The notes beneath the pieces are model-generated. The model was not told the origin of the DNA. It was given only the letters and a program-made list of their open reading frames with translations, and did not search any database. Shown here one piece after another: positions 1,730 to 28,711 of a stretch of 55,786 nt of DNA. This DNA is from an uncultured virus (IMG/VR IMGVR_UViG_3300011008_000014) (Duplodnaviria > Heunggongvirae > Uroviricota > Caudoviricetes). The DNA lies in IMG/VR virus record IMGVR_UViG_3300011008_000014; one strand, written 5' to 3'. A program made the position numbers and the translations under genes. Position 1 is the stretch's first letter, and each line of letters begins with the position of its first letter.

Positions 1730-1954
1730 AGGAGCAGGGTTAATAATTTGTGTTCCAACGACTTGCAGACGCTTAAAAATGGCAAATAACAAGGTAGCAA
1801 CATCAAAACAATAAAGAAACAACAGCGAATCCCCACACCTTATTATATAGGGTGAGGGGTAGTTGAAAACCAGTTTACTTTGGCCTATCTGTTAAAATAA
1901 ACTAAATGACTTTATTTTCTTTGCAAAATGTTTGGCGGTTTCAATTTATTTGCT

Positions 1955-1962: not shown

Positions 1963-2019
1963 CAGTATCAAAACCATTTAGAACAGACGAGCCGACTGAA
2001 CAAACAGGCAACAGACAAC

Positions 2020-2337: not shown

Positions 2338-2366
2338 TATATCGAACCATTTAGATATTTACAGCT

Positions 2367-8387: not shown

Positions 8388-8756
8388 ATGGAAAAGGATA
8401 TGAAGATGGCTGCTCAAATGGCCATTGACGAGATAGAACAGCTATTGCCACCGATGGATTATAACGAAGAAACCGAGAACGCTGGCCGACACCATGCACT
8501 GAATGAATATGGGCTGGATTTGTTCAAGGCTGGTGCAAAGTGGGCTTTGGAGATGCTCTGGAGTGACCTAACGGAAGCACCCGAAAAAAGCGACGGTATC
8601 ATTATTCTTGATGACAGGGATGAAATACGCCAGTGCAAGAAGGATGGCAGTTATTATGAAGATAAGAAAGACGGCCTCCCGATGCTCAACGATGAAGTAT
8701 GTAGCTTTATCAGCATTGAATCATTGCATAAGAAACTGACCGAGGGTTTATGGTGA
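8388..8756 (+). CDS. Hypothetical phage protein
   Basis: FKAGAKW motif related to the DUF551-like ORFs in this cluster. Confidence 0.6.
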   Translation: MEKDMKMAAQMAIDEIEQLLPPMDYNEETENAGRHHALNEYGLDLFKAGAKWALEMLWSDLTEAPEKSDGIIILDDRDEIRQCKKDGSYYEDKKDGLPMLNDEVCSFISIESLHKKLTEGLW

Positions 8757-8886
8757 TGGCAGATGAAAATCTGCCATTTGCTATATAAATAAGGTAGAAA
8801 ACGGCTGAAAATGGGCTTAAATTGTTAAATAAAGCAAATAACTTTATTTTTCTACTGAAAAATTTGGTTATATCAATTTTATTGCT

Positions 8887-8894
8887 TAAATTTG
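8887..8894 (+). promoter_or_regulatory. Bacteroidetes promoter (-7 TAAATTTG; -33 TTTG near 8863)
   Basis: Consensus in an AT-rich intergenic region. Confidence 0.8.
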
Positions 8895-8960
8895 CAACAT
8901 CAAACAACAATAGAACCATTTAGAGCAGCCGCCGACTGTTGAAACACTGGCAAGACGATT

Positions 8961-9308
8961 ATGACAGCAACGACAAGAAATCAGATGAGACAGGTGATGA
9001 ACATGGCACACAGCATTATGAAGGCCACAGGTTACACCCGCACATGGAGCGAAGTATTAAAGAACGCTTGGATGGTCATCAAGTTGCAGTTGAAGATGCG
9101 CACGAAGTCAGTAGAGTTTTGGTACGTCAAGGTATCAACAGGAGAGACCCGACAGGCATTTGGGACACTCATACCTACCATCATTGACCCGCTGATTAAG
9201 AACAGCGAGAACCACAAGCGCGGTAAGGATTGCATTACCTATTTCGACATTCAGAAGCAGGAGTTCAGATGCTTCAAGTCTTACAACCTCGTCAAGGTAG
9301 TGGCCTAA
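8961..9308 (+). CDS. DUF2693/WYL_2-type SH3 beta-barrel protein
   Basis: VEFWYVKV.TGETRQAFGTL...YFD...FRCFK. Confidence 0.8.
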   Translation: MTATTRNQMRQVMNMAHSIMKATGYTRTWSEVLKNAWMVIKLQLKMRTKSVEFWYVKVSTGETRQAFGTLIPTIIDPLIKNSENHKRGKDCITYFDIQKQEFRCFKSYNLVKVVA

Positions 9309-9377
9309 ATAAAGGCCGCTACAGGGCGAAAGACAGGCGAATGGATATAGTACCCACAAACGAAAAGAAAAGGCGAT

Positions 9378-9659
9378 ATGAAAGCATTATATTGGTTTAT
9401 TTTGGCACAGGTTATCACATTGTCATATTCGATATATGACATTGTACGAATGAACAGGAGAAACGGGCTGTTTAAGATGACGGTGCTTCAAGTGTATTTG
9501 ATGAAGCATCATGGCATCAGCGCGGAAGAAGCGGAGGATGAATATATCAAGTTCATCAAATGCGAAAAAGAAATCTTGGACGAAATAAAAAGTATCTGCC
9601 TAACTGAAAACTATGGCAGGCATGAAGTTGCGAAGTACAGACAGAGACATGGATTGTAA
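9378..9659 (+). CDS. Hypothetical membrane-anchored protein
   Basis: N-terminal hydrophobic segment. Confidence 0.55.
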   Translation: MKALYWFILAQVITLSYSIYDIVRMNRRNGLFKMTVLQVYLMKHHGISAEEAEDEYIKFIKCEKEILDEIKSICLTENYGRHEVAKYRQRHGL

Positions 9660-9671
9660 AACAAGGCCGTC

Positions 9672-9947
9672 ATGCGAAGAATAAGCCAAATAAAGTATTA
9701 TCAGCCGATAACAGCCAACACGCCCGAAAGGTGCATTGAGGATGGCTATGCGTTTGCTTTTGGCGAAAGCTACCCCAGCGGATATGCCGCAAAGGTAATA
9801 CAGGCCAAAAGGCACACAAAGAACGGCAAATATGCAATGATATGCGTGATAAGCTATGAAATGGCAAAGGGCAACGTGGTAAAGTCTATCACACGCGAGT
9901 ATTTCAAGAATGGCGAACTGGCAGAAACAAAGAAACAAACATTTTAA
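9672..9947 (+). CDS. Hypothetical phage protein
   Basis: Packed ORF. Confidence 0.6.
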   Translation: MRRISQIKYYQPITANTPERCIEDGYAFAFGESYPSGYAAKVIQAKRHTKNGKYAMICVISYEMAKGNVVKSITREYFKNGELAETKKQTF

Positions 9948-9959
9948 TCAGATAAGACT

Positions 9960-10148
9960 ATGACAGTAAACGGAGTAAAAGTAGATAGCGTGAGAATCGT
10001 AGGCGACAATGGCGTTTGCGTGAATATCACAGATACGGAGAAAGGCAACCTTCGCATTACGGAAGTCGGCCAGTACCTCAAGACATTGCAGGTCATCCCG
10101 CAAAATTCAAACAGTCTAATCATCAGCAGCACAAGAGACATGTATTGA
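9960..10148 (+). CDS. Hypothetical phage protein
   Basis: Packed ORF. Confidence 0.6.
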   Translation: MTVNGVKVDSVRIVGDNGVCVNITDTEKGNLRITEVGQYLKTLQVIPQNSNSLIISSTRDMY

Positions 10149-10149
10149 T

Positions 10150-10380
10150 ATGATAGCATACAAATTCACTATATCCAGCGACATCTGCGGAAAGGTGGAA
10201 TCCTATATCCGCAAGAAGTTCAGAGGCAGTAAGCGCGTTTTCGTTCAATCACAATTCGATGACGAAATCTTACTGGTGGCCGAAAGCAGGGAAGCGTGTA
10301 GCGGAATAAGGAGCGACGTGGAGGTCATCTGTGAATATGAGGGTGTAGAATACAAATGTGATATACTTAAAGACGATTGA
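10150..10380 (+). CDS. Hypothetical phage protein
   Basis: Packed ORF. Confidence 0.6.
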   Translation: MIAYKFTISSDICGKVESYIRKKFRGSKRVFVQSQFDDEILLVAESREACSGIRSDVEVICEYEGVEYKCDILKDD

Positions 10381-10625
10381 TTATAGCCGAAACGGTTGAG
10401 GTAAATGGAATGACATTTCAACGAACAAAATTGCTCCCGAATTTTCAAGGGGTATATGATTCAGACCCATGCACTGAGTGCCATCTTGATATTCACTGGG
10501 TAGATTACGGTGGCAAATGTTTGTGCGGTAAGATAGACTGTGCAAGAAAGAACAGAAAAGACCCCCATGTGTGGACGATAGTAGGAGGTATAGAACAACT
10601 AAAATCAAAGGATACGAAACTATGA
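10377..10625 (+). CDS. Cys-rich hypothetical protein
   Basis: CTEC...CLC...C. Confidence 0.5.
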   Translation: MIIAETVEVNGMTFQRTKLLPNFQGVYDSDPCTECHLDIHWVDYGGKCLCGKIDCARKNRKDPHVWTIVGGIEQLKSKDTKL

Positions 10626-10789
10626 CAGCAAGACAGGAGAACAATCTGAATAAGGTGAGGGATTTGCTAAAGCAGGCGCGGAACTTGCTCGACGGTGTGA
10701 TGTACGGCGATGACCCGCTGGCCGATGGCGAATTTAAGAAGGTGCGCGGATGCCATGACTGTATCTGTAGGGCAAACGACTGTATTTGA
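10622..10789 (+). CDS. Small hypothetical protein
   Basis: ATGA overlap with previous stop (MTARQE). Confidence 0.5.
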   Translation: MTARQENNLNKVRDLLKQARNLLDGVMYGDDPLADGEFKKVRGCHDCICRANDCI

Positions 10790-11076
10790 AAGCTATGACG
10801 GTATTTGAACGGAACGCCCGCTATTCGTACAGCGAGACACTGAACCACCTTATCGGCAATGGCTGGCGGTGGCCTCACCTTCGCACATGCCGACACAATG
10901 GGTATGAAGTCATTACCTATGCAGACAGCAACCGCACAAGGGGATTTCATGCAAAATTCTTCTTGAACGGAAAGCTGGTGAAGATGCGGGATAAAATTTT
11001 CAAGGCCAACATCGAAGAGTATTGTAAGAACTATATAGACCAAGTGTTAGTGAAAGAGAATTATGGAACAGAATGA
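10786..11076 (+). CDS. Hypothetical phage protein
   Basis: Packed ORF. Confidence 0.55.
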   Translation: MKAMTVFERNARYSYSETLNHLIGNGWRWPHLRTCRHNGYEVITYADSNRTRGFHAKFFLNGKLVKMRDKIFKANIEEYCKNYIDQVLVKENYGTE

Positions 11077-11455
11077 ATTGAAACGTCTGATGGTGGGCGA
11101 TTGGGTATATAACACCCACAACAGGCAGAACGAGCAGGTGCAGCAGATATTGGAATTGGGCGTTATGCTTGATTACAATGACATCTACAGTGCCGACGAT
11201 ATAGAGCCAGTGAAGCTGACCCCCGAAATACTGGAGCGGAATGGCTTTACGAATTATGGTGAATCTTGGTACATCCCAACAAAAAATGATGAAGATATTC
11301 ATATAATGATAGGCTTTCACCGAAGGGAGAATGTGATTGATGTTTGGCAGAACTTGAAAGTGTCTTATCGGAAAACAACTGTAAACAAGTTATATGTTCA
11401 TCAACTCCAGCAAGTCTTACGCATTTGTGGAGTCAATAAAGAAATCGAGCTATGA
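11063..11455 (+). CDS. YopX-like phage protein
   Basis: LMVGDWV...IEPVKLTPEILERNGF...VHQLQ..LRICG. Confidence 0.7.
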   Translation: MEQNELKRLMVGDWVYNTHNRQNEQVQQILELGVMLDYNDIYSADDIEPVKLTPEILERNGFTNYGESWYIPTKNDEDIHIMIGFHRRENVIDVWQNLKVSYRKTTVNKLYVHQLQQVLRICGVNKEIEL

Positions 11456-11772
11456 ACGAAGTAAACGAAAGGCTGCAACAGGCAGCGGAAGAAAAGGCTA
11501 TCTGTCTTGAAGAGACCATTGGCACGTCGCCGCATTCGCGGGATGCCATTGTGGATTGTCTGATAGAAATGGCTGGCTGGCAGCGCGATAACATGTGGCA
11601 TGACGTTTCGGAACTGCCGAGCAATGGCAGTAAGATTGTTGTTGTCGGTCAAAGTGACGATGTGTTTTCATGTACCCATGTCGCTGGCGGCAAGTACAAG
11701 GCTTATTGGGATGTGTACGACTTGCGGAATTGCAAGAAATGGTGCTACGTTGAAGATTTATTGCCTGTATAG
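11452..11772 (+). CDS. DUF551-like phage protein
   Basis: WHDVSELP...KWCYVEDLLP. Confidence 0.65.
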   Translation: MNEVNERLQQAAEEKAICLEETIGTSPHSRDAIVDCLIEMAGWQRDNMWHDVSELPSNGSKIVVVGQSDDVFSCTHVAGGKYKAYWDVYDLRNCKKWCYVEDLLPV

Positions 11773-11838
11773 CGGCAATTATTATAACCACGGCTGCAAT
11801 TTTTGTTGTTTGAAGTGCGGAATGTGGAAAACTTTTCG

Positions 11839-11846
11839 TACCTTTG
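11839..11846 (+). promoter_or_regulatory. -7 element TACCTTTG in front of the putative sRNA
   Basis: Perfect TAnnTTTG followed by C; no credible ORF before the terminator ~90 nt downstream. Confidence 0.65.
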
Positions 11847-11849
11847 CAG

Positions 11850-11940
11850 CCGAATGGCCATTTGGTCATTCATGCACCCGAAAGGGTGTATCTAAATGGT
11901 TTTGGGCGTATGGCGTTGTGAAATGCTGTGCGCCTTTTTC
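11850..11940 (+). ncRNA. Putative structured small RNA: two hairpins, unpaired seed CTAAATGGTTTT, intrinsic terminator
   Basis: Hairpins 11852-11871 and 11872-11891 (GAAA loop), unpaired 11892-11903, terminator stem 11904-11935 plus T run; seed is antisense to the repeated leader motif. Confidence 0.65.
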
Positions 11941-12026
11941 GTATGCCTTAAATCGCCTTTTTCTTCACCTAAACACAAGGTGAAATCATAAATCAGCACA
12001 TTTTGGATTCTGTCGGATAATAGGTG

Positions 12027-12034
12027 TAACTTTG
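12027..12034 (+). promoter_or_regulatory. Promoter for tape measure operon (-7 TAACTTTG; -33 TTTG 12002-12005)
   Basis: Consensus elements with a 21-nt spacer. Confidence 0.7.
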
Positions 12035-12062
12035 CCCGAAATGAATTAAAAGAAGCGAACAG

Positions 12063-15000
12063 ATGGCCGAGTTATATTTCAAGGTACATTCCGACTGGCA
12101 GGAGGTAGTAAGGTTGCGCAATGAAATTGTGCATCTTGAAAGTAAGTTGAATCAGTTCAACGGTAAAGCACCGCTGGATGTGCTGGATAAGATGTGTGAC
12201 GAACTGACGGCGGCAAAGGCAAGGCTAACGGAATTGGTCAATGCAGCAGCCATTGAAGGGTCGAAACTGGATGGTGCTCTTAAAAAGGGTACTACCATTG
12301 ATATGTCAACTCCGATAGGACAGCTTAAAGCGTTTGATGACGAACTGATAAAGCTGTGTTCCAACTTGAATACCTACTTCGATACATTGAAGGGCAAGTT
12401 GCAGGATTTGACTTCCGTACTTGGCAATGGTGCAAACATCACCGACAACATCAAGGTCAATGATGACAACATAGCCAAGCTGGAAGAATTGAAAAGGCAG
12501 AATGCCGAACTGATGGAGTTGGTAAAGAAGCGTCAAGAGGAACTTGAAAAGGAGCGCGAGATATACAACCAGCTTGCGAATGCCGTGCGTACAAACAACA
12601 CGTCGGCCATAAGCATGATGACGAACACAGCAACGGAAAGTGTCAGTCAGATAAAGGCGAAAATCAAGGAGGCCAATGCCGAGGTCGCACAGCAGAAAAT
12701 CATTGTCGAAGAGATGTCGGCTGCTTATGACAAACAGCAGGCAAAGGTTGACAAACTGGAGAAAAAACTTGCAGGCTTAAAGGCGTTCTATGGCGAATCG
12801 CGTCAAAGCTACAACGGCCAGTCGCAGATTATCGAAGCGGAGGAGAATCTTCGGAAAGCCCAGCAGCAACTCACCAGCATCAAGACGGACTTGACCGTGG
12901 CGAAGGATGAGCAGAAGCAGATGAACGATAAGGTTGCCGAATATGAGGAGCAACTGGAAAGCGCGGGAAACAAGGCCGTAAGGATGCGCACACAGATAAT
13001 GAATGCCCGCGAAGCCATGATGCAGCTGATAGCGGCTGGCAAGGGCGGTACTCCCGAATTTCAGAAACTTGCGGAAGAGGCTGGTACGATGCGCAGGCAT
13101 ATGGCTTTGGCAAACGCCACCATGCAGTATTTCGCAACCCCGAACCGTCACCTTGAAGGATTAAAAACCGCTTTGCAGGGCGTGGCTGGTGCAGCGAGCC
13201 TTGCTACTGGCATCTTGGGCATATTCAATACCAATTCCGAGAAGATGGCTGAGATACAGACTAAGATACAGTCGTATTTGGGTGTTATCATCGGATTGGA
13301 AAGTGCTTACGCTGCTGTCAAGAAAACAAGTAATGCCATGCTTCTGATTTCGGAGGTACGGTCATTAGCGTTGGCAAAGGCAAAAACGTATGAGACTGTT
13401 GCGACGAATGCAGGAACGATAGCAACGATGAAAGCTGCCGCCGCACAAGCATTCTTCAATACTGTTGCGAAGATGAATCCCTACCTTCTGCTGATTAGTG
13501 GAATAGGTCTTTTGTGTGGTGCTATATGGGGATTGACAAAGGTGCTTAACTCAGAATCCGAAGCAGAGAAGAAGTTGCAAAAGGAACGTGAAGCCCGTAT
13601 TAAAGAGGCGCGTGAAGCACATGAAAAATGGGCTAATGAAGTCGCCAGTTCTGCGGGCAAGCAGATTGCATCTTACGAAAACCTCAAACGGAAATGGAAA
13701 GAACTTGGCAACGATTTGAATGCCAAGAAGAAATTCATCGACGACAATAAGGATGCCTTTCACGATTTGGGGTGGGCTGTTAATAATGTTGCTGATGCAG
13801 AAAACCTGTTTACAAAGAACACACAGGCAGTTATCAATGCTATGCTGGCAAGGGCAAAGGCTGCGGCCTATCAGACAGCGATAGCAGATGAATATGCTAA
13901 GTCCATCAAGAAGCGCGACCAAATAGACAACACAGTTGCTGGTGGTGGATATAGAAGGGTATATAAGGAAGGTGACAGGCTGACAAATGACCAAATAAAG
14001 GCTCTTAATCAGCAGTATGGGGTTAATCTGAGTGCAACATCGTTAGACCCAAGAACCCAAATCAAAGGCGTTTCATTTTCCACTGATTCAAAGCTGACGG
14101 CAGCTTCGGCGGCTTATCTTACATCACTGGAGGCGAAAGACGCCACTAAGCGATGGAAAGCCAATGTGGATGCACTGAACAAAGAAACCGAAGAGCGTGT
14201 TGGCTACCTTACGAAAGGACTTGAGCAGGCTGTGAAGCAACAGGAGCAAGCCGTGAAAGCTGTAGGTGTTCAAGAATGGCAAGGCGGCGGGAAACGTGGT
14301 AACAACAAAAAAGGAAACTCGCCCGATGATATAGTACAACGCCAGCTTTTGCAGCAACAGGAAGCCGCCCGCATACAACATCAGAACCAGTTGCTACAGG
14401 AGCAGGCCGTCATCGACCAAATGGATGACGGAGCGGAAAAGGAACTGGCACAGATGCGCCTTAACCATAAGAAGCGCATGGCCGAACTTGACAACGAGCA
14501 ACAGGACATCTTGAATAAGAAGATTGAAACTGCAAGCAAGGATAAAAGTGGCAATACCATCAACGGGTTCTATACAACAGGACAATATAAGAAGGTTCAG
14601 TTGACAGAAGATGACATGCTCGGAGTCAATTCCAAGCGTATGTCGGAACTAATTGCTTTCTTTGATTCAATCGGAGGCAGTTCTGCTTATGCGGAGGATA
14701 GGGTGAAAGCCTTACGTCAAGCCTATTCGGATTTCATGGCTGGTACAAAAGATGCTGATGGAAACCCGTTGGTATCTGATGACATACTTAATAACATCGA
14801 GGCACAGTTCAACAAGGTACAGGATGAAATCCGAAAAGAGGAACTTCGTGCCATGCGTGATTATCTGCGTGAATACGGCAGCTTTGAACAGCAGAAACTC
14901 GCCATCACGCAAGATTATGAAGAGCGTATCAAGAAAGCCCGTACAGAAGGTGAAAGGATGAAACTGGAGAAAGAGCGTGACAAGGCTCTTTCCAGCTTGT

Positions 15001-17632: not shown

Positions 17633-20600
17633 ATGGATATTGTACGCAAGTCACAGAGTGACATATATTCCGCACCGTTGTGCGAAGGGTCGCTGGTTCA
17701 CCGTGAACTGATGGGCGACCATTACATGCTTTTGGTGTTCAACTCGGCAGAGGCGCAGCATTTCCGCTTGGGCGACTACTGCGACACCGATTTTGGCCGC
17801 TTTGAACTGACAGACCTTTACGAGCCCGAATACAATGAGGATGGCGGCTTCAAGTACCAGCTTCGTTTGGATGCCTACTACATGAAGTGGAAGAATAAGA
17901 TTGTCAAGTTCACCCCTTCAAACCAGCAGAGCGAGATGGCATTCACGCTGACCCGCGACCTTGCAGGCCACATGGAACTGTTCATGGCTAACCTCACCTA
18001 TCTTGGCACAAAGGATAGCAGCTATCTGTTCAACGGAAGCACGGCATTCACCTATGATATAGACTATAGCCATATCAGCAAGAAGATGATGCCAGTCAGC
18101 TATGACAGCCTTTCATTGATTGATGCACTTAACCAGTATGCAAGCCTTTGGGAGTGCGAATGGTGGGTAGTGGATAACGTCATACACCTTGGCCGCTGTG
18201 AGGGTTCTGTGAATGTCGCTACCTTCAAGCTGAATGACAACGTGGCGCAGATGTCACGCGCACAGGGCAGCAAGCAGTATATTACACGTCTTTATGTCTT
18301 TGGCTCTGAAAGAAACATCCCGTCGAACTACAGGAAGGAAGAAGGGGCAACGGTTGTGAACGGCGTGGTGCAGCGCAGGTTGATGCTCCCCGAAGGTACG
18401 CCCTATCTGCAAGTGGCGGGAATCACGGAGGAGCAGGCCGTCGAGGGTGTGCTGATACTGGATAACGTGTACCCGCGAACACAGTGCAAGGTGGGTGCAG
18501 TAAGTACCTATGTCAGCAAGGGAACGGACGAGGAAGGTAACGAGACCACAGAGACCTTCTACCGCGTGTCTGACACCAGCGGATTCATCGACTCCATCGA
18601 CAACGATATGCGCCTTGACGGTGACAGCTTCCATATCCGCTTTACCAGCGGCAAGATGAACGGCATGGAGTTTGAGTGTAATCTGATTGCCAATGACCAG
18701 CGCATAGGAAGGTGCTTTGAGGTTATCGCTAACGAGGATTACGGAATCAAGCTGCCACGGGAGAATTTCTGCCCAGCAGTAGATGATGAGTATATCATAT
18801 TCGGATGGGATGCCACGAAGATTGCCGACACGTCGCTGATAACGTCGGCAGAGCAGGAACTTGTGACGGAAGGTAACAAATACCTTGCAAAGTCGCAGGT
18901 TGACCCGTCGGAGTACACCTGTACGATGATTTCAAAGAAGATGCAGGACATCGGTATGCCAGTGAAATACGGAAGGGATGCCAATGTCGGCAATGACCAG
19001 TATGTACCCATCCCCTATGACTTGGGTGACAAGGTGCAGATGGATAACCCCGCGCTTTTCGGAAGTTCAAGAAGTTCGCGCATCATCGGCTATGAGATAA
19101 AACTGGATATACCTGCTGACAGCCCGCAGTTCATTGTCGGCGAATCACTAAGGTATTCGCGCAGTGGCGCAATGGAAAGCAAGCTGGATGAACTGACCTA
19201 TGAGGGCAACCTCTACACTGGTGCTGGCGGTTATGGCGGCGGCTCTGTGTATATCATCGGTACTGGCGACACCACCCCTGCATCGAATAAGAACGTCTAT
19301 TCTGCCATCAGAAGTGATAATCAGTATGCACGGAAAGACAGGAACGATGTCATCAAGTCATTGTGGACGTTTAAGAATGGGAATGGAGTAAGGCGTGGAT
19401 TGCAGACCGATGATTATCTGCTGAACACCAACGAGGGCAACCTTTTCGGGAAGGGCTTTGAACTTGTCTCGCAGACTAACGCTTTGGGCGATACACGCAC
19501 ACGTCTTGAAGTCGATGAGTTGTTTGTCAGAATCAAGGCGTTCTTTGCCTCATTGGAAATCCGCGAGATGTCCTACGTCGGTGGCAACTACGTTTTCTCT
19601 GCTGCTGGAAGTAAAATCTATTATGTCGAGTGGCTTGATGCAAATGGAAACATTGTCAGCAAGACTGGCGGCGCAATATCAAGCGTATATAAATTCCGCT
19701 GTTATCTGTACTCCGACAATGGCACGACTGCCACCATCAATAAGTGGGCTGTTGATGACCAAGTGATGTGCCGTACATTCAACATCGACGCTGGAGTGCA
19801 TCAGAACGTGTCTAACAAATACTACTGGCGCAGGGCTACTGGCGTAGGACAGGAAATCATCAAGACAAAGGCTTTGGCCGCTGTCGAAAAGCAGTACCTT
19901 GCAGATGTCGAGGCAATCAATAACTGGCAGGTGATGACCGACGAGGAAAGGGTGGAACAGGCACAGGCACTTGCAGACCTTGAGGAGGCATACGAACTTG
20001 CGAAGCAGACCGTAAAGAATGGCGGTGTTCCCGACGGAGCAGCCGATGACATGGCTTTCACGTCCTATCAGTATGTGGATATTTCAATGACCGATTGCGA
20101 CCTTAACAGCGACTTCCCCGAAGATGACGATACCATCGTGCAGTTCGGAAACTGGACGAACACGGCAAGACAGGGCATCATCTACCTGCAAGTCGAAGGT
20201 GAGGGCTCTCCCGCCATCATGGAATATTCAAAGGTGGGTCTCAGCCACTTCACAATCCCCGAACCCAACCTTCTGCTTTCGCCGAAGAAAAACGTCATCT
20301 ATGGCGAGTTCCACTCCGTCGTTGACTCCGAGGGCGGCAATACTGGCAGCGGCGATTCCATTGCAGACCAACTGGCGGCTCTGATTGCATCCTTGAATTA
20401 CATTCAGAACCAAGCCGACAAGAAATTTGAGTTGTGGTTTGCCCCCTATGCACCGCTTCCTTCTATATCGTTTGATGCCGTGGAAGATACCGACGGCAAG
20501 AATCCTGCCGAGGAGGGATGGTATGAATGCGTCGATACGAACATCTATGAGACCACAAGGGATGCAACGCCTGTAGCTGGAAAGACGTATCTCATCAAGA

Positions 20601-23600
20601 CCGACAACAATACATCGGTGAACTATCCCGCGTCGGAATGGACTACCGAGGCACTGAAAGCCCTGCATGTGCAGGATTTGTTCTATGACACGTTTAGGGA
20701 GCCTGCATCGGAAGGTGGCAGGGCATGGCGGTGGACTACCATATCCGTTGACGGTGAAATCATCGACAGGTGGATAATCGTGACCGACCAAGATACGCTT
20801 GACTCACTGGAGAAAATATCGGACGTGGCCAGTGACGGCAGGCTGACAGGCGGCGCGGAAAAGACCCGCGTCTATATCGACTGGATGAAGGCCGTACAGG
20901 ACTATCAGAAGTACGAGGAACAGGCGCGAGACTACGGGCTGAATGATAGCGACTATTACGGCGAAGGTGTGAATATCTACCAAGCATACGTCACTGCATT
21001 CAAGAAGCTGGCACGTCTGCTTAACGGCGACGATACCACGTCGGAAAGCCTGTATGTCTCTGACGAGATAATGAACGGCACTACAGCCCCCGCATGGCTG
21101 GCAGACCTCAACTCGACCACGGACATCCCATCACCTGTTATATACAGGCAGATATGGAACACATATTATTCGGCCTTGGCCGCTTTGCTGAAAGCAATAC
21201 AGAAAAGAGCCAAGGAGTTGGCAGATGCGGCACAGGGTACGGCAGACAACGCCCATGAGCGAATTGATGACATTGTTTCGGACGGCATCATCAGTGCTGG
21301 CTCTGAAAAGTCGCTGCTTTACATCGACTGGCTGAAAGCCGTTGCGGAATATGCAAAGTACATCGAACAGGCCGAGGATTACTTCGGTGCAAACAACTCA
21401 CAGGATGACGCGCTGGTTACTGCCTATACCAATTTGGCGAAGATGCTGAACAATGGCGAGACCCCGACGGCGGCAATCTTGAACGGCACGGCTCGACCCG
21501 CATGGCTGACGGTTGCGAACATGAACGTAGACACGGCGCTGGCTGACACCCCGACAAAGAACGCCACCAACTATCACACGGTATGGAATAACTATCAAGT
21601 TGCGCTAACCGCCCTGCTTGAGACCATTACGACAAAGGCCAAGGAGTTGGCAGATGCGGCACAGGCCGATGCGACCACGGCATTGAACAAGATAGGCGAC
21701 ATGGGCAGCGACGGCAAGTTAGACCCGTCGGAAAAGCTGACAGTAAAGAGGGAGTTCATTGCCTCATGGAACGAAAAGGATAAAAGTGAAGGTATTATTG
21801 ATAAGTGCTATGATAACAATGACAATCTGCTTATTGCCAGTTCAACGGTCAACGCATACATCAATGCCTTTGTCGCACTTGGTACTTACCTCAACGGCGG
21901 CACGGCTTGGAATGCTGGAAAATCCATGCAAACCGATGCTTACAGGGCAACAGACGGCAATCTCCCTTCGTGGATTCAGTCGGATAACATGTCATCTACC
22001 AACAATATCACTGGCAGCACATGGCGCACGAAATGGTCAGATTTCTATGCAGCCCGCACAGCGGTTATGACCGCACTTTCGGAAGCAGCGAAGAATGCAG
22101 CCGATAACGCCTATGAAGAGGCCGTGACGAAGGTAAACTATTTCGTTGGTGCATCCGTTCCAACGCCGCCATACAAAGAAGGTGACTTGTGGCTTAAAAC
22201 GTCATCGGATAATCCGACTTTGGCACAGGCCGAGGCTGGCGAGATGTATGTGTGCGTGAAAACACGGGAAAGCGGCACAGGGCAGGCAAGCGATTGGGCG
22301 AACATGAAGGAAATCACGGAAAAGCGCGACCCGCGAATACTGCTGGCAGCACTTGTCAGCATGGTTTATTCGTACAATGGCGGCTATCTTCGTGAAAAAG
22401 GCACGAATGCTTATCAAAGAATATGCTTGGGGCAAAGAAACTATCATGCAGAAGGTGACTTGGCCTATTACGATTCCACTGTCTATCAGTATAGGGATGG
22501 ATGGGAAGAAATCAGCAATGAAACCCTGCGTGAGGCATTCAAGGCCGTCTATGAAGTCATCGGGCAGTACAATCTAAGGATATTCAGAACCCGACCGACA
22601 ATCACGAAGCAGATGTATGACATGGTATGTTCCACCGTGACATTCACAGACTCGTACTTGCCAGTTGGCAATGCCTATAAGACGGTGGAGGGCGGTGTGA
22701 ACATCGAGATGTGGAATGGTGACGATTGGGAAGTGCTGCAACGGTCTATGCAGAGCCTTATCGAGAACTTGCAGGGCTATGTCCGAGCCGTGGCTTATGC
22801 ACAGGCTGGGGATGTTGTCAATGCCAGCGGATTTATCACATCATCGGATTGGGCAACGCTTTTCTCGCAGGCTACCGATGCAGACGGAAACGTCATTGCA
22901 CAGGCTCATTTGGGTACTTATGTGACGAAGGACTCAAACGGCAAGATTACCAGCGGAATCACCCTTGAAGCAGACCAAATCAACTTTACAGGCAAGACAA
23001 TCATCAATGGAAAGTTTGTTGTAGATAACAATGGCAATCTGACATTGAATGACATTACAGCCAACAATATCACAGCAGAAGGAAAGATTGTAGGCTCGGT
23101 GCGAAATCCATTCTACCCGACAAACATCACACCGTCATATTATTCAAAAGATAGTATTGCACTTTTAAATTACACAAGTGGTAATGCTTCTTTTGTAAGC
23201 GGAGATATGAATCTGAATATCGGTTCTTCTCCGACACAAAGCTGTGGCCGTTTGATAAGACTTGTTGCTGGACGGTGGGGAACATCAAGTAGTTATGGTA
23301 CAGCAACGGTAAAGTTCAAAGACAGCAATAATAATTATTATAAAATATACGAAAATGGAAAAGAAGTTGATAGTATCGACATCTCTAATGAGGTAGTAGA
23401 GGTCATCGGCTATGGAAGTACCTCGCAGTTGTTTGGCTTTATTGTCTTAAACCGCATAGATTTCATGCCGCAGAATGCCTACGGAAAGACTTTGAAGATT
23501 CTTGCGCAAGGTCGAATGCTTTACAAAGACTCGGAAGACAGCAAGACATCCTTAAACTATATAGCTTTTGATAATACAACAATAGAATCAGTAAGAGAAT

Positions 23601-23986
23601 CAGAAGGCGAATATAAACTTACGTTTACCCATCCTACAAATAAAAGGTGGTTTGAAGATATTAAAGATGCCCTTGTTCATGTTACTGCTTTTGGAACTAT
23701 TATAGGAGGCGGAAATCCTTTGAAGGCAGGCGTTACAGGTATTGAGATAGAGACTACCACGTACACATTTACAAGTAGCGGATGCACAATAACTAAGGTG
23801 ACAAAAACATTAAATAGAGATGGTGTGTCAACTGATACAACAACATCATCAGCGTCCATCACTGGAAACAGCACAATATTTTATACTGTTATGCGCGTTT
23901 ACGTCAATACATCGGATGATGATTCAAGAAACGATGGTGGGTTCCAGTTTATGATTACCAATATGAATGATTTTAAAAATCGTTAA
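17633..23986 (+). CDS. Tail tip/baseplate hub protein with internal repeats and variable C-terminus
   Basis: ITRLYVFGSERNIP and VYPR hub motifs, LEVDELFVR fibre motif, three SDG.(L/I)...EK repeat modules. Confidence 0.85.
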   Translation: MDIVRKSQSDIYSAPLCEGSLVHRELMGDHYMLLVFNSAEAQHFRLGDYCDTDFGRFELTDLYEPEYNEDGGFKYQLRLDAYYMKWKNKIVKFTPSNQQSEMAFTLTRDLAGHMELFMANLTYLGTKDSSYLFNGSTAFTYDIDYSHISKKMMPVSYDSLSLIDALNQYASLWECEWWVVDNVIHLGRCEGSVNVATFKLNDNVAQMSRAQGSKQYITRLYVFGSERNIPSNYRKEEGATVVNGVVQRRLMLPEGTPYLQVAGITEEQAVEGVLILDNVYPRTQCKVGAVSTYVSKGTDEEGNETTETFYRVSDTSGFIDSIDNDMRLDGDSFHIRFTSGKMNGMEFECNLIANDQRIGRCFEVIANEDYGIKLPRENFCPAVDDEYIIFGWDATKIADTSLITSAEQELVTEGNKYLAKSQVDPSEYTCTMISKKMQDIGMPVKYGRDANVGNDQYVPIPYDLGDKVQMDNPALFGSSRSSRIIGYEIKLDIPADSPQFIVGESLRYSRSGAMESKLDELTYEGNLYTGAGGYGGGSVYIIGTGDTTPASNKNVYSAIRSDNQYARKDRNDVIKSLWTFKNGNGVRRGLQTDDYLLNTNEGNLFGKGFELVSQTNALGDTRTRLEVDELFVRIKAFFASLEIREMSYVGGNYVFSAAGSKIYYVEWLDANGNIVSKTGGAISSVYKFRCYLYSDNGTTATINKWAVDDQVMCRTFNIDAGVHQNVSNKYYWRRATGVGQEIIKTKALAAVEKQYLADVEAINNWQVMTDEERVEQAQALADLEEAYELAKQTVKNGGVPDGAADDMAFTSYQYVDISMTDCDLNSDFPEDDDTIVQFGNWTNTARQGIIYLQVEGEGSPAIMEYSKVGLSHFTIPEPNLLLSPKKNVIYGEFHSVVDSEGGNTGSGDSIADQLAALIASLNYIQNQADKKFELWFAPYAPLPSISFDAVEDTDGKNPAEEGWYECVDTNIYETTRDATPVAGKTYLIKTDNNTSVNYPASEWTTEALKALHVQDLFYDTFREPASEGGRAWRWTTISVDGEIIDRWIIVTDQDTLDSLEKISDVASDGRLTGGAEKTRVYIDWMKAVQDYQKYEEQARDYGLNDSDYYGEGVNIYQAYVTAFKKLARLLNGDDTTSESLYVSDEIMNGTTAPAWLADLNSTTDIPSPVIYRQIWNTYYSALAALLKAIQKRAKELADAAQGTADNAHERIDDIVSDGIISAGSEKSLLYIDWLKAVAEYAKYIEQAEDYFGANNSQDDALVTAYTNLAKMLNNGETPTAAILNGTARPAWLTVANMNVDTALADTPTKNATNYHTVWNNYQVALTALLETITTKAKELADAAQADATTALNKIGDMGSDGKLDPSEKLTVKREFIASWNEKDKSEGIIDKCYDNNDNLLIASSTVNAYINAFVALGTYLNGGTAWNAGKSMQTDAYRATDGNLPSWIQSDNMSSTNNITGSTWRTKWSDFYAARTAVMTALSEAAKNAADNAYEEAVTKVNYFVGASVPTPPYKEGDLWLKTSSDNPTLAQAEAGEMYVCVKTRESGTGQASDWANMKEITEKRDPRILLAALVSMVYSYNGGYLREKGTNAYQRICLGQRNYHAEGDLAYYDSTVYQYRDGWEEISNETLREAFKAVYEVIGQYNLRIFRTRPTITKQMYDMVCSTVTFTDSYLPVGNAYKTVEGGVNIEMWNGDDWEVLQRSMQSLIENLQGYVRAVAYAQAGDVVNASGFITSSDWATLFSQATDADGNVIAQAHLGTYVTKDSNGKITSGITLEADQINFTGKTIINGKFVVDNNGNLTLNDITANNITAEGKIVGSVRNPFYPTNITPSYYSKDSIALLNYTSGNASFVSGDMNLNIGSSPTQSCGRLIRLVAGRWGTSSSYGTATVKFKDSNNNYYKIYENGKEVDSIDISNEVVEVIGYGSTSQLFGFIVLNRIDFMPQNAYGKTLKILAQGRMLYKDSEDSKTSLNYIAFDNTTIESVRESEGEYKLTFTHPTNKRWFEDIKDALVHVTAFGTIIGGGNPLKAGVTGIEIETTTYTFTSSGCTITKVTKTLNRDGVSTDTTTSSASITGNSTIFYTVMRVYVNTSDDDSRNDGGFQFMITNMNDFKNR

Positions 23987-23995
23987 TTTGGTTTT

Positions 23996-24032
23996 GGGCG
24001 CATAACGGTTTAACGCTGTGCGCCCTTTACTT
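23996..24032. terminator. Stem-loop between convergent hub and lipoprotein genes
   Basis: GGGCGCATAACG...CGCTGTGCGCCC followed by TTT. Confidence 0.65.
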
Positions 24033-24695
24033 TTATCGCCCATTGTGTGTTTTCTTTATGACAATGCCAGTACCTGCTTCATCGTTCCACTCAACAATAA
24101 TAGGCGATTCTGACATGTGATTGAACTGCTGATAATACACATCTTTACCAAAGTGGATATAGAAAATATCTATTGGGTAATCAATCCCTTGCTCGTATGT
24201 GGTTGTTTGAACTCCAGCATAGCGAGTCGTATAGGTGGTAGTGCGGTATGTTTCAATATTTTCAATAAACTTCTGTTCTGAATAAGAATGACCGACGTAG
24301 TAATCAGCATCAAATGTTGTTAGATTCGCTTTAGTGAAAGACATTGTTTTACTTTTTGGATTGCCTTTCACATCGGAATAACTAACGGTCAATTTCATGC
24401 TGTTATTGTCAGACTCAATAATATTATAGGTGGTATGCTTGTTGAAATATGGATTGTGGCATCTGAATTGTGCAGTCGTTTCATCATATTCAAATGTGCC
24501 GCCATCAATAAAATCATCTTCCAAGTAGGCGGCATAATACCCATTTTTGAACGTCAAAAGGTATTCCCCCGACTGCCATGTGCCAACTGGTGGTTGTGTT
24601 ATTACATGCTGTTGTGGGTCATCTGTATTGTCATTGTCGCTGCTGCAAGACAGCAGGGCAAATATTACTGCCAAACTGAGAAAAATCTGTTTCAT
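24033..24695 (-). CDS. Lipoprotein moron
   Basis: LLSC lipobox followed by acidic SSDNDN; low GC; opposite strand to tail genes. Confidence 0.75.
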   Translation of the reverse strand: MKQIFLSLAVIFALLSCSSDNDNTDDPQQHVITQPPVGTWQSGEYLLTFKNGYYAAYLEDDFIDGGTFEYDETTAQFRCHNPYFNKHTTYNIIESDNNSMKLTVSYSDVKGNPKSKTMSFTKANLTTFDADYYVGHSYSEQKFIENIETYRTTTYTTRYAGVQTTTYEQGIDYPIDIFYIHFGKDVYYQQFNHMSESPIIVEWNDEAGTGIVIKKTHNGR

Positions 24696-24705
24696 AGTTA
24701 GGGAA

Positions 24706-26148
24706 TTATTTTATGATAGTTTTCAACTGATTAAACTTATTCGGATTATCTTGCATTTCATTCCATGAATAGCGGGTATAATTGTTTCTGTCGAATCCAT
24801 GTTTGCCGTCATAGACGTAGATAAACAATTTGTCACACAGAATCAATATATTCGCCTCCATCAGATGCGCGTATGATAATCCTTGCAGATATGCTTGTTC
24901 GCGTTCCTTGTTATTTGCCATGTATAGTTTTGCCTCAATGAGTACCTTTGCGGTATATCCGTTTGCACCTTTTCCGCAATGCAGGGCAAAATCGGGATAG
25001 ACACGCTCGCCACGACCTATTTTCAATGGAATCTGACGCTTGTAATCCAAATCATCAATGCCCATCGTATTGAGAAGTGGAATCAGCAGATTTTCTTCCA
25101 CATCCTTTTCAACCTTTATATCAAAGTTATTTGGTATGGATGCCGTCTGTAACTTTGGAATGGAGTCTGCGTCGCCACCTTTCGCCTTAATCATCCGAAG
25201 CAGATTTTGAAGGTCATCACCTGTCATCGGCCAGCCGCTAACTCCTTGGAACTTCTTGCGCACTAATGAATGCTTGGCAAAGTATTCATCTTCCTGTAGT
25301 TCATGTAGGGTGATATGCGGAATATCCCTTTTGTCTGATAGTTGGGCGAAAGACCAGTAATATTCAAATGGGTCTGCTATGCCGTCGGAGTATGCCCTCC
25401 AGTAGCAAGTAATAGCACTGACGGGGGCAGTTTCGTAATGGAACATCAAATCACCACGCCTTGTTTCAATATTGGATTGCCAATATTTATCTTCATTGGC
25501 TGTGTCGCGGTTGCTGAACAATCCGCCGACAAACCACGCTTGCTGCGGTTGTGGAATGGCAGATTTTGAATCATGCTTGATGTAATTAGGTGCAAAGGCA
25601 TACAGAAAGGCGCAAAGTTCATTAGGCGATAAGCCTGCATCCTTTCTGAACTGATAAAGTGTTTCGCAGAGTCGCCAGTAATACATACATCGGTCACGAT
25701 GCGCAGTCTTATTTGGCAGTGGTGGAAGATGTATGTCGAAAACGTCTGCTATCCTGTATAGGTCTTGTATGCGGACATTGAACAGATGCGGGTAGAAAAA
25801 TTCGGGTTCATATTCAAACAACAGAAATGAAATTTGAGTGACCCAATTTAATGTGTTTCTATACTTTCCATCGTGCGTTACACCATCTATTATATCCTCA
25901 TACAGTTCTTTGGCATGTTCTAATGAATCTGCTTCACCTTCTGAAAAGTTAGTAAAGATGTCATTCCACAGCAAATCGTAGAAATCCTCCATCTTCTTCC
26001 TGTCTTGGTATGGTGCAAGATGTGGATTGTATTTACATTCCAGTTCGGCCTCACGCATTTCTTCCCTTGCGGTGGCGAACTCTTCAATGGCAGATTTGCC
26101 TCTTTCGGATTCTTTGTATAAATCCCATGTAAACCGTTCAAACTTCAT
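24706..26148 (-). CDS. Putative restriction endonuclease: central EVE/PUA-like region plus C-terminal PD-(D/E)XK domain (HsdR-N-like)
   Basis: E.DVE..L..PLL, YPDFAL, LIEAK, QGLSYA motifs; WQSN..TRRGD..FHY.TAP.SAI central region. Confidence 0.7.
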   Translation of the reverse strand: MKFERFTWDLYKESERGKSAIEEFATAREEMREAELECKYNPHLAPYQDRKKMEDFYDLLWNDIFTNFSEGEADSLEHAKELYEDIIDGVTHDGKYRNTLNWVTQISFLLFEYEPEFFYPHLFNVRIQDLYRIADVFDIHLPPLPNKTAHRDRCMYYWRLCETLYQFRKDAGLSPNELCAFLYAFAPNYIKHDSKSAIPQPQQAWFVGGLFSNRDTANEDKYWQSNIETRRGDLMFHYETAPVSAITCYWRAYSDGIADPFEYYWSFAQLSDKRDIPHITLHELQEDEYFAKHSLVRKKFQGVSGWPMTGDDLQNLLRMIKAKGGDADSIPKLQTASIPNNFDIKVEKDVEENLLIPLLNTMGIDDLDYKRQIPLKIGRGERVYPDFALHCGKGANGYTAKVLIEAKLYMANNKEREQAYLQGLSYAHLMEANILILCDKLFIYVYDGKHGFDRNNYTRYSWNEMQDNPNKFNQLKTIIK

Positions 26149-26180
26149 AATGGTGCAAGCACTATGTTACTAACAGTCTG

Positions 26181-26188
26181 CAAAGGTA
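26181..26188 (-). promoter_or_regulatory. -7 promoter element (TACCTTTG on minus strand) for the nuclease-lipoprotein pair
   Basis: Consensus ~33 nt upstream of ATG 26148. Confidence 0.65.
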
Positions 26189-26222
26189 CTGGAAATCTGT
26201 GAGAATGCCAAAAAACGACGAG

Positions 26223-26489
26223 TTATTTATCTATTTTTATGGAAATCGGCTTGCCGCAGTGGGGGCAGGTGGCTCTCGGAACGGTTGTTTCTTCGTCAGC
26301 GACCAATTCAGAAACGGAAACACCGATGATGCTGGCAATCTCCTTGAGTTTGTCAAGAGTGGGATTTCCGTTTATAATCTGTGATACGGCTGCATGGGAT
26401 ATTCCCTTATCACCTTGTTTATTGGTCATTTCTGTTGCTAAACGCTCCAGCGTCCATCCCTGTGAATTGATTACTTTCCTAATATTCAT
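26223..26489 (-). CDS. XRE/Cro-C1 HTH regulator with C-terminal CPHCG zinc knuckle
   Basis: GWTLERLA..M....ISHAAVSQIINGNPTLDKLKEIA..IGV. Confidence 0.9.
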   Translation of the reverse strand: MNIRKVINSQGWTLERLATEMTNKQGDKGISHAAVSQIINGNPTLDKLKEIASIIGVSVSELVADEETTVPRATCPHCGKPISIKIDK

Positions 26490-26686
26490 AAGTTATAAAT
26501 TACATTTGTGGGTGCAAAATTACGAATTAAATCCGAATCGGCCAAACAAAACATAATTAAAATGTAATTTATAACTTTATTTAGTGAACAACATCTAATT
26601 TAGACCTTACAAGAGTTAATAATATTAAAATGTAAGCATAAACTTACAAAAATATTAGGTTTTTAAGTTTTATCTTACTAACTTTG
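26489..26686. promoter_or_regulatory. Divergent promoters with ~5 TAA(G/T)-N6-(C/A)TTA operator-like sites
   Basis: Leftward -7 at 26515-26522, rightward -7 TAACTTTG at 26679-26686; palindromic TGTAAG-N6-CTTACA at 26631-26648. Confidence 0.65.
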
Positions 26687-26714
26687 CACTTGTAATCAAG
26701 AAATTCTATAAGTT

Positions 26715-26846
26715 ATGACAAAGAAAATTAAAATCAGTGACAGCAAGGTTAAGGCATTATACAATGCACTTGCAACCTATAGAAACGGCTATCCCCTTTT
26801 ACCCAGTGAGATAAAGCTGCTTGAAGATTTTAACATCACAATATAA
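26715..26846 (+). CDS. Small 43-aa protein (not in ORF track)
   Basis: First ATG after the rightward promoter; MTKKIKISDSKVKALYNAL... Confidence 0.5.
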   Translation: MTKKIKISDSKVKALYNALATYRNGYPLLPSEIKLLEDFNITI

Positions 26847-26887
26847 TAAGGTAAACAACAACATTCACCATTTAATTATCAGACATT

Positions 26888-27217
26888 ATGGCACAGTTCA
26901 AGAATCAAATGAGAGAAATCATGCAGATGGCATGGCAGTTCGTAAAGCGCAACGGCTACAGCATGAGCGAGGCACTTAAAGTCGCATGGGCAAACTTTAG
27001 GTTGAAGATGGCGATGAGAACCCGAATCGTCAAGTTCTATTTCATCAAGGTCGATGGCAGCACACGCGAGGCATTCGGTACGCTGGCACAGGGCATGATA
27101 CCCGCTATCGCTGGCACAGACACCCGCAAGCCCAACGACACCATTCAGACCTACTACGACACCGAGAAACAGGCTTGGCGCTGCTACAAGAAAGCCAACC
27201 TGTTACGAATCGCATGA
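26888..27217 (+). CDS. DUF2693/WYL_2-type SH3 beta-barrel protein (second copy)
   Basis: VKFYFIKVDGSTREAFGTL...YYDTEK..WRCYK. Confidence 0.85.
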   Translation: MAQFKNQMREIMQMAWQFVKRNGYSMSEALKVAWANFRLKMAMRTRIVKFYFIKVDGSTREAFGTLAQGMIPAIAGTDTRKPNDTIQTYYDTEKQAWRCYKKANLLRIA

Positions 27218-27282
27218 CACACGCCCAAACCATTTAGAAAGCAATATAACGACATACAACAACCATTTTAGAACGTAAAATT

Positions 27283-27606
27283 ATGAATCAGACAGAAAAC
27301 ATTCAAGTCGCTACAGCATGTGCGATGCTTGCACAGCTGAATGATGCCGTCAACAAGCGCAACTGGTGGCTAAGAGCCAGTACAGACGGCAAGACCTTTC
27401 AGATTGAGGCCGAAAAGGATGTGCCGTGCAAAAAGACGGAAGCATTTCTTATCGGCGAAGTGAGAATGACGGCAGCACAGTTTCTTTGCACGGTGGCCGC
27501 ATTGCTAAGTGTAGAGTTCGGCAACGTATCAGATGACATGAACATGATAGAATACGGTGCGGTCGAGGATTACAAGGAATATGTGTTGAATCAAAAAAAC
27601 GTATAA
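27283..27606 (+). CDS. Hypothetical phage protein
   Basis: ORF with leader motif upstream. Confidence 0.65.
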   Translation: MNQTENIQVATACAMLAQLNDAVNKRNWWLRASTDGKTFQIEAEKDVPCKKTEAFLIGEVRMTAAQFLCTVAALLSVEFGNVSDDMNMIEYGAVEDYKEYVLNQKNV

Positions 27607-27608
27607 CT

Positions 27609-27803
27609 ATGGCAACGACATCAAACAACAAATGGGGCAAGGTGCTTGCCAGCTATGACGCGATGATTGAAATGGTTTGGGATTTGGCCTTTGGAGGCGA
27701 AATGTCAGACAGCGAATCAGCCGCATCAGACATCATCGTACAGGATTACAACAAATTCAAGGCGTATTTGGAAGCAAATTCGGTAATAAGTGCAGAGGGG
27801 TGA
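27609..27803 (+). CDS. Hypothetical phage protein
   Basis: Packed ORF. Confidence 0.6.
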   Translation: MATTSNNKWGKVLASYDAMIEMVWDLAFGGEMSDSESAASDIIVQDYNKFKAYLEANSVISAEG

Positions 27804-27859
27804 CTCTCTGCATTCTTCATTTAATAAAGTAACAACAACAACTTAAACATTTAGAACGT

Positions 27860-28690: not shown

Positions 28691-28711
28691 CAGGTCTCTG
28701 AATGGTTGTTT

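Follow-up and report, generated by a model that had tools for sequence, protein, structure and literature searches.

Introduction

The phage RNAs known to pair with messages of their own phage come from a few enterobacterial models, each acting on one operon. The c4 RNA is cut from a longer transcript and presents two seeds in loops, which recognize two sites in one operon. The immunity RNA CI of P4 pairs through an internal sequence with repeated complements in leader transcripts of the same element, and brings about premature transcription termination at two sites in one leader. In a 2025 review of phage-derived small RNAs (sRNAs), c4 (phages P1/P7, immI) is described as a structured phage RNA of ~77 nt that acts in trans and blocks an antirepressor operon (PMC12197685). 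Here, we analyze a 55,786-nt stretch of DNA from an uncultured virus (IMG/VR record IMGVR_UViG_3300011008_000014; hereafter "the window") and describe a structured RNA gene at 11851-11940 (+). This gene would represent a different arrangement, in which one RNA faces many dispersed, identically tagged leaders of the phage's own genome.

Like c4, which pairs near the ribosome-binding site, the RNA would set a short exposed complementary stretch against the phage's own mRNA, and like P22 sar it would be a phage RNA pairing with the phage's own messages (both as described in PMC12197685). It departs from c4 in having one linear seed between hairpins, an apparent promoter and terminator of its own, and from 5 (window) to 8 (complete genomes) dispersed sites. 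We did not find the c4 arrangement of two loop seeds and two sites before an antirepressor operon; the antirepressor gene has no motif 5' of it within the window, and the nearest motif (at 1969) lies downstream. As in P4 CI, an internal RNA sequence is matched by repeated leader complements, the difference being that the sites here lie in many separate units. The first-pass annotation had invoked P1 c4 and P4 CI as precedents. The parallel holds as a functional analogy and does not extend to membership of either family.

Among multi-target sRNAs, GcvB of enterobacteria has a G/U-rich single-stranded seed that pairs with C/A-rich translation enhancers 5' of the ribosome-binding site (PMC3879156). 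The motif described here is similarly C/A-rich and often lies 5' of the initiation zone. GcvB is a host RNA that depends on Hfq, acts on amino-acid transport and has degenerate targets, whereas the element described here is phage-borne and an identical 11-mer occurs in 13 of the 23 leader cassettes compared. The host phylum, Bacteroidota, is not known to encode Hfq.

Bacteroidota ribosomes are not known to use Shine-Dalgarno pairing, and sRNA biology in this phylum is a young field. If the reading proposed below is true, the system would provide a clear case for control of translation or leader function without Shine-Dalgarno sequences, and would give Bacteroides/Prevotella genetics a compact RNA switch that is orthogonal and comes with its own matching leader tags. 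Our search of the full-text literature returned nothing relevant on a phage sRNA of this sort in Bacteroides, and the words "Bacteroid" and "Prevotella" do not occur in the 2025 review (PMC12197685).

A conserved structured RNA gene

The RNA gene is housed in a 290-nt spacer between the stop of a 106-aa open reading frame (ORF; stop at 11772) and the start of a 1718-aa tape-measure-like gene (Table 1). Folding of 11851-11940 (+) gave -46.3 kcal/mol, compared to -26.2 +/- 3.1 kcal/mol for 200 shuffled sequences (z -6.44; 0/200 as good), and reproduced the coordinates previously proposed for both hairpins, the unpaired stretch and the terminator; the -7 box also lies where it had been placed. 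Positions 11892-11903, which make up most of the seed, are predicted to be single-stranded (unpaired probability 0.77-0.91). The -7 box was assigned from a Bacteroidota-type promoter consensus that we take to apply here. In place of a -33 box, a different conserved block precedes it.

To date, seven distinct variants of the RNA are available: the window, two relatives from IMG/VR, namely G001 (98% complete at 116 kb) and G002 (119 kb and 100% complete, with terminal repeats), and four metagenome contigs. The last group comes from a scan of metagenome contigs with an 18-mer containing the seed, which returned 27 loci: 7 with the RNA, 7 of target type following a WYL_2 gene, and 13 unrelated. 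The 7 RNA loci contribute 4 new variants, one locus being identical to the window over the 122 nt shown. In the consensus of the seven variants all three helices are kept (28 pairs) and the seed is unpaired. Across the alignment, 96.4% of 196 cells are paired, versus 37-55% when partners are slid by 1-3 columns. Both sides have changed in 9 of the 28 pairs (4 in hairpin 1, 3 in hairpin 2, 2 in the terminator), and the observed covariation was reached by 0/500 shuffles on any of five measures. Sequence variation is found in hairpin 1, hairpin 2 and the inner terminator, while the GAAA loop, like the -7 box, is the same in all seven. Comparison of the variants supports a structured RNA at 11851-11940 that is conserved, each of its three helices having undergone compensatory changes. 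Furthermore, the neighbors 3' of the RNA gene differ between variants, suggesting that the element behaves as a self-contained cassette.

An ORF can be drawn from an ATG inside the seed, and its length ranges from 16 to 125 aa across the seven variants. It is therefore not conserved as a gene, and we rejected a coding role for the seed ATG, in agreement with the initial impression that the RNA contains no credible ORF. The view that the RNA belongs to no described family also stands, as no Rfam family, c4 included, matches it. With Rfam 15 at gathering thresholds, the whole window yielded tRNA only. When 11750-12070 was scanned permissively, three matches scored 18-24 bits (gathering thresholds 50-80), none of which overlaps the RNA in sense, and a scan of the leader region 1850-2400 gave none. 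A blastn search of INPHARED phages with 11780-12062 found no match. In IMG/VR, an anchor that does not include the seed (promoter plus hairpin-2 loop) matched only G001 and G002. The same was true of the motif-plus-cassette pattern described below, so that RNA and motif co-occur.

We also compared assembled contigs from four of the eight sequencing runs listed for 9000-14000 to positions 8500-14500. Contigs from the RNA-type run span only 12312-13156 and 14351-14384, at a depth of ~3, and those from a second run, guessed to be RNA, are scattered pieces, none over the RNA gene; contigs of this kind show neither transcript ends nor strand.

Complementary sites are frequent, strand-specific and phage-specific

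The reverse complement of the seed, CAAAACCATTTAGA, occurs exactly at 1969-1982 (+) and 50224-50237 (+), the third exact position being the RNA gene itself, at 11891-11904 (-). Allowing up to 2 mismatches, this 14-mer has 7 matches in the window compared to 0.58 expected, and 0/100 shuffles reach 7. Its 11-mer core is present exactly six times, five on the (+) strand and once on the (-) strand, in the RNA gene. With up to 1 mismatch there are 9 matches versus 0.91 expected. Contiguous complementarity to the RNA amounts to 14 nt at 1969 and 50224, 13 nt at 2345, 12 nt at 27227 and 11 nt at 8914, with predicted duplex energies of -16.4 to -18.9 kcal/mol at these five sites; the pairings first listed at 1969, 50224, 2345, 8914 and 27221 (18 nt with one bulge) were all recovered. 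Targets were judged by contiguous match and per-site duplex energy, since a sliding RNAduplex scan of the whole window was swamped by G/C-rich looped duplexes and did not discriminate.

The enrichment extends to the relatives. G001 and G002 each contain 9 copies of the 11-mer and 0 of a reversed-pattern control, with ~0.06 copies expected by chance in a 119-kb genome by our own arithmetic, and the motif is among the top over-represented 10-mers in the window, G001 and G002. In both relatives, 8 of the 9 copies have a same-strand ORF start 2-40 nt downstream, including one that sits on the opposite strand ahead of an operon of that strand. The remaining copy is the RNA gene, which has no ORF. 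As first proposed for the window, and now seen in all three genomes, the RNA gene is the only copy antisense to local transcription.

A 3.8-Mb Prevotellaceae metagenome-assembled genome (MAG) contains only 2 copies of the 11-mer, about the chance level. The target motif is phage-specific and not a host-wide word. Searching genome contigs with the seed 18-mer gave 6 matches, of which 5 are unrelated (an archaeon, Neisseriaceae and others) and one, in a Prevotellaceae MAG, is of target type. Two further IMG/VR phages, G004 and G005, have the cassette hairpin described below without the motif and give no match to the RNA model; a search of both for an analogous repeated leader word found none. 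Pairing of the motif with 16S rRNA was considered and rejected, the longest match being 6-7 contiguous nt in 16S genes from four genomes of the Prevotellaceae family.

Two classes of target site

It had been noted that the motif recurs in gene leaders. The sense orientation is borne out, and what changes is the unit: in many places the motif is not a free-standing word, being instead the first block of a promoter-leader cassette of ~60 nt with a covarying hairpin. We refer to these sites as class A. Behind a strong -33/-7 promoter, class A leaders have the order motif, small hairpin, AAAC..GGCA, 8-11 nt, ATG. The predicted transcript start is no more than ~25 nt from the motif, and 34-40 nt separate the end of the motif from the AUG; at 1969, for example, the gap to ATG 2020 (105-aa gene) is 37 nt. 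There are ~10 class A cassettes per complete genome and 4 in the window. The hairpin has 3-5 bp, begins 5-7 nt past the motif and has a conserved loop, nnGCC(G/A)A. Its middle pair is AU in 11, UA in 6 and GC in 2 of 19 distinct rows and is never unpaired, and its covariation score was reached by 0/500 shuffles. Apart from this hairpin, the leaders have almost no predicted structure (-3.6 to -8.6 kcal/mol over ~70 nt), and the target sites are therefore expected to be accessible.

Class B motifs are solitary and intergenic. They lie 2-12 nt from the AUG and have neither a promoter box 5' of them nor a hairpin. The window has three such sites (2345, the imperfect 27262, and 50224), and orthologous sites are found in G001 and G002. 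At 2345, the 11-mer core ends 11 nt 5' of ATG 2367, the start of a 34-aa hydrophobic ORF also present in both relatives. The window sites at 2345, 27221 and 50224 are all intergenic, with no promoter box found upstream, which fits a signal at the RNA level better than an operator.

Pairing at 27221-27238 extends into the 5' arm of the sRNA terminator. In 7 metagenome loci and in one locus (L040) of a Prevotellaceae MAG, complementarity at this site is perfect over 20 nt. The order of WYL_2 stop, perfect 20-nt complement, second motif copy and ATG recurs in these same 7 loci and L040. It is possible that the WYL_2 protein is an RNA-binding partner.

Besides those of the divergent control region, there are cassettes that follow the portal gene, that precede an amidoligase gene, and that lie within a 12-kb block of small genes separating the head genes from the tail genes. 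The targets had been regarded as scattered early-gene clusters. With cassettes spread over the ~117-kb genome, including the interval between head and tail genes, they are not simply early clusters. The leftward cassette of the control region, which has a variant motif in the window, has the exact motif in both G001 and G002. In G002, a leftward operon of ~24 small genes (reverse-complement positions 20187-29692) runs from a class A cassette of the divergent control region and includes several paralogues of PHROG families 98, 8684 and 10066, whose function is unassigned.

Outside these genomes, the hairpin part precedes genes in the unrelated IMG/VR phages G004 and G005 (L043, L052), with a CCG/CGG compensating stem. 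A loose cassette pattern searched in viral contigs gave at least 117 loci, mostly chance matches; of the 117 inspected, 6 had a promoter box or motif. An A/T-rich inverted repeat of the AAATAAAG...CTTTATTT type lies just 5' of many cassette promoters (window 1888-1920 and 8828-8850), and few 10-mers are repeated more often in G001 and G002. A role as a terminator or upstream promoter element at the boundary of each cassette is possible.

Table 1. Positions of the RNA gene, its complementary sites, related elements and neighboring genes
Feature	Position (strand)	Remarks
Conserved stretch 5' of -7 box	11812-11838 (+)	GTGCGGAATGTGGAAA-type block in 5/7 variants, small hairpin in the other 2
Bacteroidota-type -7 promoter box	11839-11846 (+)	TACCTTTG; identical in 7/7 variants
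Candidate sRNA, hairpin 1	11852-11871 (+)	Both-side changes in 4/8 pairs across variants
Candidate sRNA, hairpin 2	11872-11891 (+)	GAAA loop invariant; both-side changes in 3/6 aligned pairs
Candidate sRNA, seed UCUAAAUGGUUUUG	11891-11904 (+)	Exact reverse complement of leader motif
Candidate sRNA, terminator stem-loop and U run	11904-11940 (+)	14 pairs; stem 11904-11935
Target, class A	1969-1982 (+)	14/14; at or near 5' end of transcript from promoter 1957-1964
Target, class B	2345-2357 (+)	13-nt match within operon
Target, class A	8914-8924 (+)	11-nt match; leader of WYL_2 gene 8961-9308
Target	27221-27238 (+)	18 nt, one bulge; just past stop of second WYL_2 gene (26888-27217)
Imperfect second copy, class B	27262-27274 (+)	One extra T; 8 nt before ATG 27283; -11.3 kcal/mol
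Target, class B	50224-50237 (+)	14/14; ends 9 nt before ATG of 635-aa gene (50247-52154); promoter box absent 5'
Variant motif CAACAACATTTAGA, class A cassette	48250-48263 (+)	Rightward promoter of divergent control region; weak, -9.9 kcal/mol
Variant motif, class A cassette	48067-48080 (-)	Leftward promoter of divergent control region; -11.7 kcal/mol
Cassette leader after motif	1983-2022, 8925-8963, 48026-48066 (-), 48264-48302	Window
Terminator after 2117-aa tail gene	23987-24031 (+)	Kin to sRNA 3' half (UGGUUUUGGGCG... stem ...GCGCC), without UCUAAAU
G031 homologue	L209:4048-4142 (contig C3, 74048-74142)	GAAA hairpin, UUCUAAAUGGUUU, terminator with many compensating changes; no hairpin 1
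G064 match	L207:1492-1577 (-)	1.6-kb contig; 34 bits; same -7 box, one hairpin, related terminator loop, different unpaired stretch
Antirepressor gene	815-1729	Pfam/PHROG scans
WYL_2 genes (Sm-like fold, SH3 barrel)	8961-9308 and 26888-27217	Two paralogues
Tape-measure-like gene	Start 12063	1718 aa
Tail gene		2117 aa; followed by the terminator 23987-24031 (+)
Diversity-generating retroelement	32760-41663	Target 32760-39530; reverse transcriptase 40158-41663
Divergent control region	Near 48.1 kb	
Integrase ORF	54074-55605 (-)	Adjoins tRNA-His at right end of window

Proposed mechanism and alternative explanations

Judged from sequence, the locus is a real conserved structured RNA gene with highly non-random, strand-specific and phage-specific complementary leader sites. 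It combines features generally expected of trans-acting sRNAs, namely a conserved single-stranded seed and conserved complementary mRNA sites beyond chance. Because the structure covaries, the seed is accessible, the targets are non-random, strand-specific and phage-specific, and RNA and motif co-occur, we lean, with some caution, towards 11851-11940 (+) being the gene of a ~90-nt trans-acting antisense sRNA that controls a regulon in the phage's own genome.

In this model, the sRNA would be transcribed from its own -7 box, and the two 5' hairpins and the terminator would leave 12-14 nt single-stranded. This exposed stretch is predicted to pair with the motif CAAAACCAUUUAGA(A) on phage mRNAs. 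Initiation would be blocked at class B sites, where the duplex would lie over the ribosome landing zone. A class A duplex would hide the first block of the conserved, unstructured leader, beside a small hairpin that may be recognized by a protein or the ribosome; such masking could hinder a leader-dependent step (loading of ribosomes or a factor) or make the mRNA more or less stable. Overall, ~8 dispersed transcription units would come under coordinate control, presumably by repression, during lysogeny or at a stage of the lytic cycle.

Several observations weigh against an antisense sRNA. No canonical -33 TTTG was found at the usual spacing 5' of the -7 box. The seed 18-mer itself was the query that recovered six of the seven variants, so invariance of the seed is partly by construction, and since seed and motif are both invariant they give no covariation signal. 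Nor does the base just 5' of the seed provide one, as it fits 7/8 targets in G001 and G002 and only 1/5 in the window. The ordinary terminator at 23987-24031 shares the 3' half of the seed, GGUUUUGGGCG, as do terminators from other genomes of the Bacteroidaceae, leaving only about UCUAAAUGG(UU) special to the RNA. Class A sites, 34-40 nt 5' of the AUG, are outside the normal ribosome footprint. Furthermore, 10/23 cassettes carry variants (ACATTTAGA, CCGTTTAGA, CCCATTTAGA) that break the duplex mid-way, among them those at both promoters of the window's divergent control region. Finally, the chromosomal homologue described below is in a 3.7-Mb genome (G031) with no motif-bearing leaders, where the sole other copy of the 10-mer is in a coding context.

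The strongest alternative, which we nevertheless consider unlikely, is that the motif serves mainly in cis, as a signal that a protein, or the machinery of transcription or translation, would recognize (nut-like, ops-like, or a translational operator). The structured RNA would then be either an antagonist of that signal, in which case this explanation merges with the sRNA, or unrelated. The cassette shares its layout with lambda nut (boxA plus boxB): a conserved linear box is followed, after a short spacer, by a small hairpin whose loop is conserved, and the whole is positioned after promoters and between genes. This likeness is architectural and concerns the target rather than the RNA; there is no sequence similarity, and Pfam and PHROG scans of 55 window proteins and 117 G002 proteins (those of at least 110 aa for G002) found no N-like or other antiterminator-like protein. 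The hairpin, with its covarying middle pair and conserved loop, is always 5-7 nt after the motif in cassettes, and its recurrence without the motif in unrelated phages, again with a compensating stem, is what an independent cis signal would predict, as is the tolerance of motif variants in 10/23 cassettes. However, such a signal leaves unexplained why the exact complement of the motif occupies the sole unpaired stretch of a terminator-ended RNA in 7/7 variants, and class B sites have the motif without a hairpin.

An RNA that pairs with the motif but activates or stabilizes its targets, for example by shielding class A 5' ends from nucleases, appears improbable. It would account for the position of the class A motif, which is at the predicted 5' end or no more than ~25 nt from it, and a long way from the AUG. 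However, the leaders are already unstructured, with nothing to open, and a duplex at a class B site would fall on the initiation zone, where it should inhibit.

We regard it as very improbable that the motif acts as double-stranded DNA, whether as an operator or as a recombination site, with the copy in the RNA gene being one more such site, reversed. Several copies do lie just 3' of promoters, a common place for operators. The first-pass annotation had itself raised an orientation-independent operator as the outcome that would count against an sRNA; instead, 8/9 copies follow local transcription (two-sided binomial ~0.04, by our own arithmetic) and the motif has no dyad symmetry. Three window copies are in promoter-less intergenic spots adjoining start codons, and covariation of the neighboring hairpin points to a single-stranded role.

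Equally hard to credit is a compound terminator or insulator of the upstream gene cluster with complementarity of no function: although its 3' half is kin to a plain terminator and a -33 box was not found, the -7 box is identical in 7/7 variants while flanks and downstream neighbors differ, the GNRA-type GAAA loop is kept in all of them, and a 14/14 antisense match within a 12-14-nt unpaired window is far beyond chance.

Related terminators and a chromosomal homologue

We searched for relatives of the candidate sRNA with covariance model R1. The terminator after the 2117-aa tail gene scores 32 bits, and terminators resembling it, with a GUUGUGAAAC loop, are present elsewhere in the Bacteroidaceae (L231, L232). 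Among 151 genomes of the genus of the Prevotellaceae MAG there were 2 matches, in G031 (a true homologue, 51 bits) and G064. Among 151 genomes of the family there were also 2, both of them terminator look-alikes only.

The G031 homologue is flanked by genes for a superoxide dismutase, a methyltransferase and an extracytoplasmic function sigma factor, outside any prophage of this phage family. With no motif-bearing leaders in the same genome, it indicates that the RNA need not be accompanied by targets in the genome that encodes it. Over 63 nt, the promoter and 5' part of the homologue share 80% identity with a tRNA operon's promoter and leader, which suggests how the RNA gene may have arisen. 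A 221-nt query from this locus matched 132/401 genomes of the genus, mostly over the promoter part, and all 7 loci inspected, of 12 retained, are this tRNA operon. The tRNA-operon leader carries UUUUAAAUGUU just before the tRNA.

The G064 element may be a sibling RNA with another seed. The complement of its unpaired stretch is not repeated in that MAG, where the one exact copy is the element itself. Several contigs of G064 (L226-L229) also carry CATTAAT-type repeat arrays (ATAACATTAATCnTCATTAAT...GTTAATC...TCATTAAT), which are unrelated to the sRNA.

A more elaborate model can be drawn from these elements, and we consider it a long shot. An RNA-only master switch, formed from the promoter and leader of a host tRNA operon fused to a phage terminator, would govern ~10 portable nut-like cassettes driving scattered accessory blocks; orphan chromosomal copies such as that of G031 would serve the host bacterium as decoy immunity RNAs when phages of this family invade, and the two WYL_2 proteins, encoded beside target sites, might act as RNA matchmakers in a phylum not known to have Hfq.

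Genome context

Pfam and PHROG scans identify the window as part of a large temperate siphovirus-like phage that also encodes tail proteins, a holin and an amidase. The N-terminus of the tape-measure protein is 54% identical between G002 and the window, which corresponds to roughly half of a genome the size of G001 or G002. The sequence data are best explained by a temperate phage of Prevotella-type Bacteroidota with a genome of ~117 kb.

At the right end of the window, the integrase ORF as called overlaps tRNA-His (55531-55605) by ~30 nt. This junction is probably the prophage end and attachment site, with the true integrase start further in. In the diversity-generating retroelement, the variable region is 126 nt long (39391-39516) and falls at the C-terminus of a 2256-aa protein that ends in Lcl_C; the template copy at 40255-40380 is 81% identical to this region.

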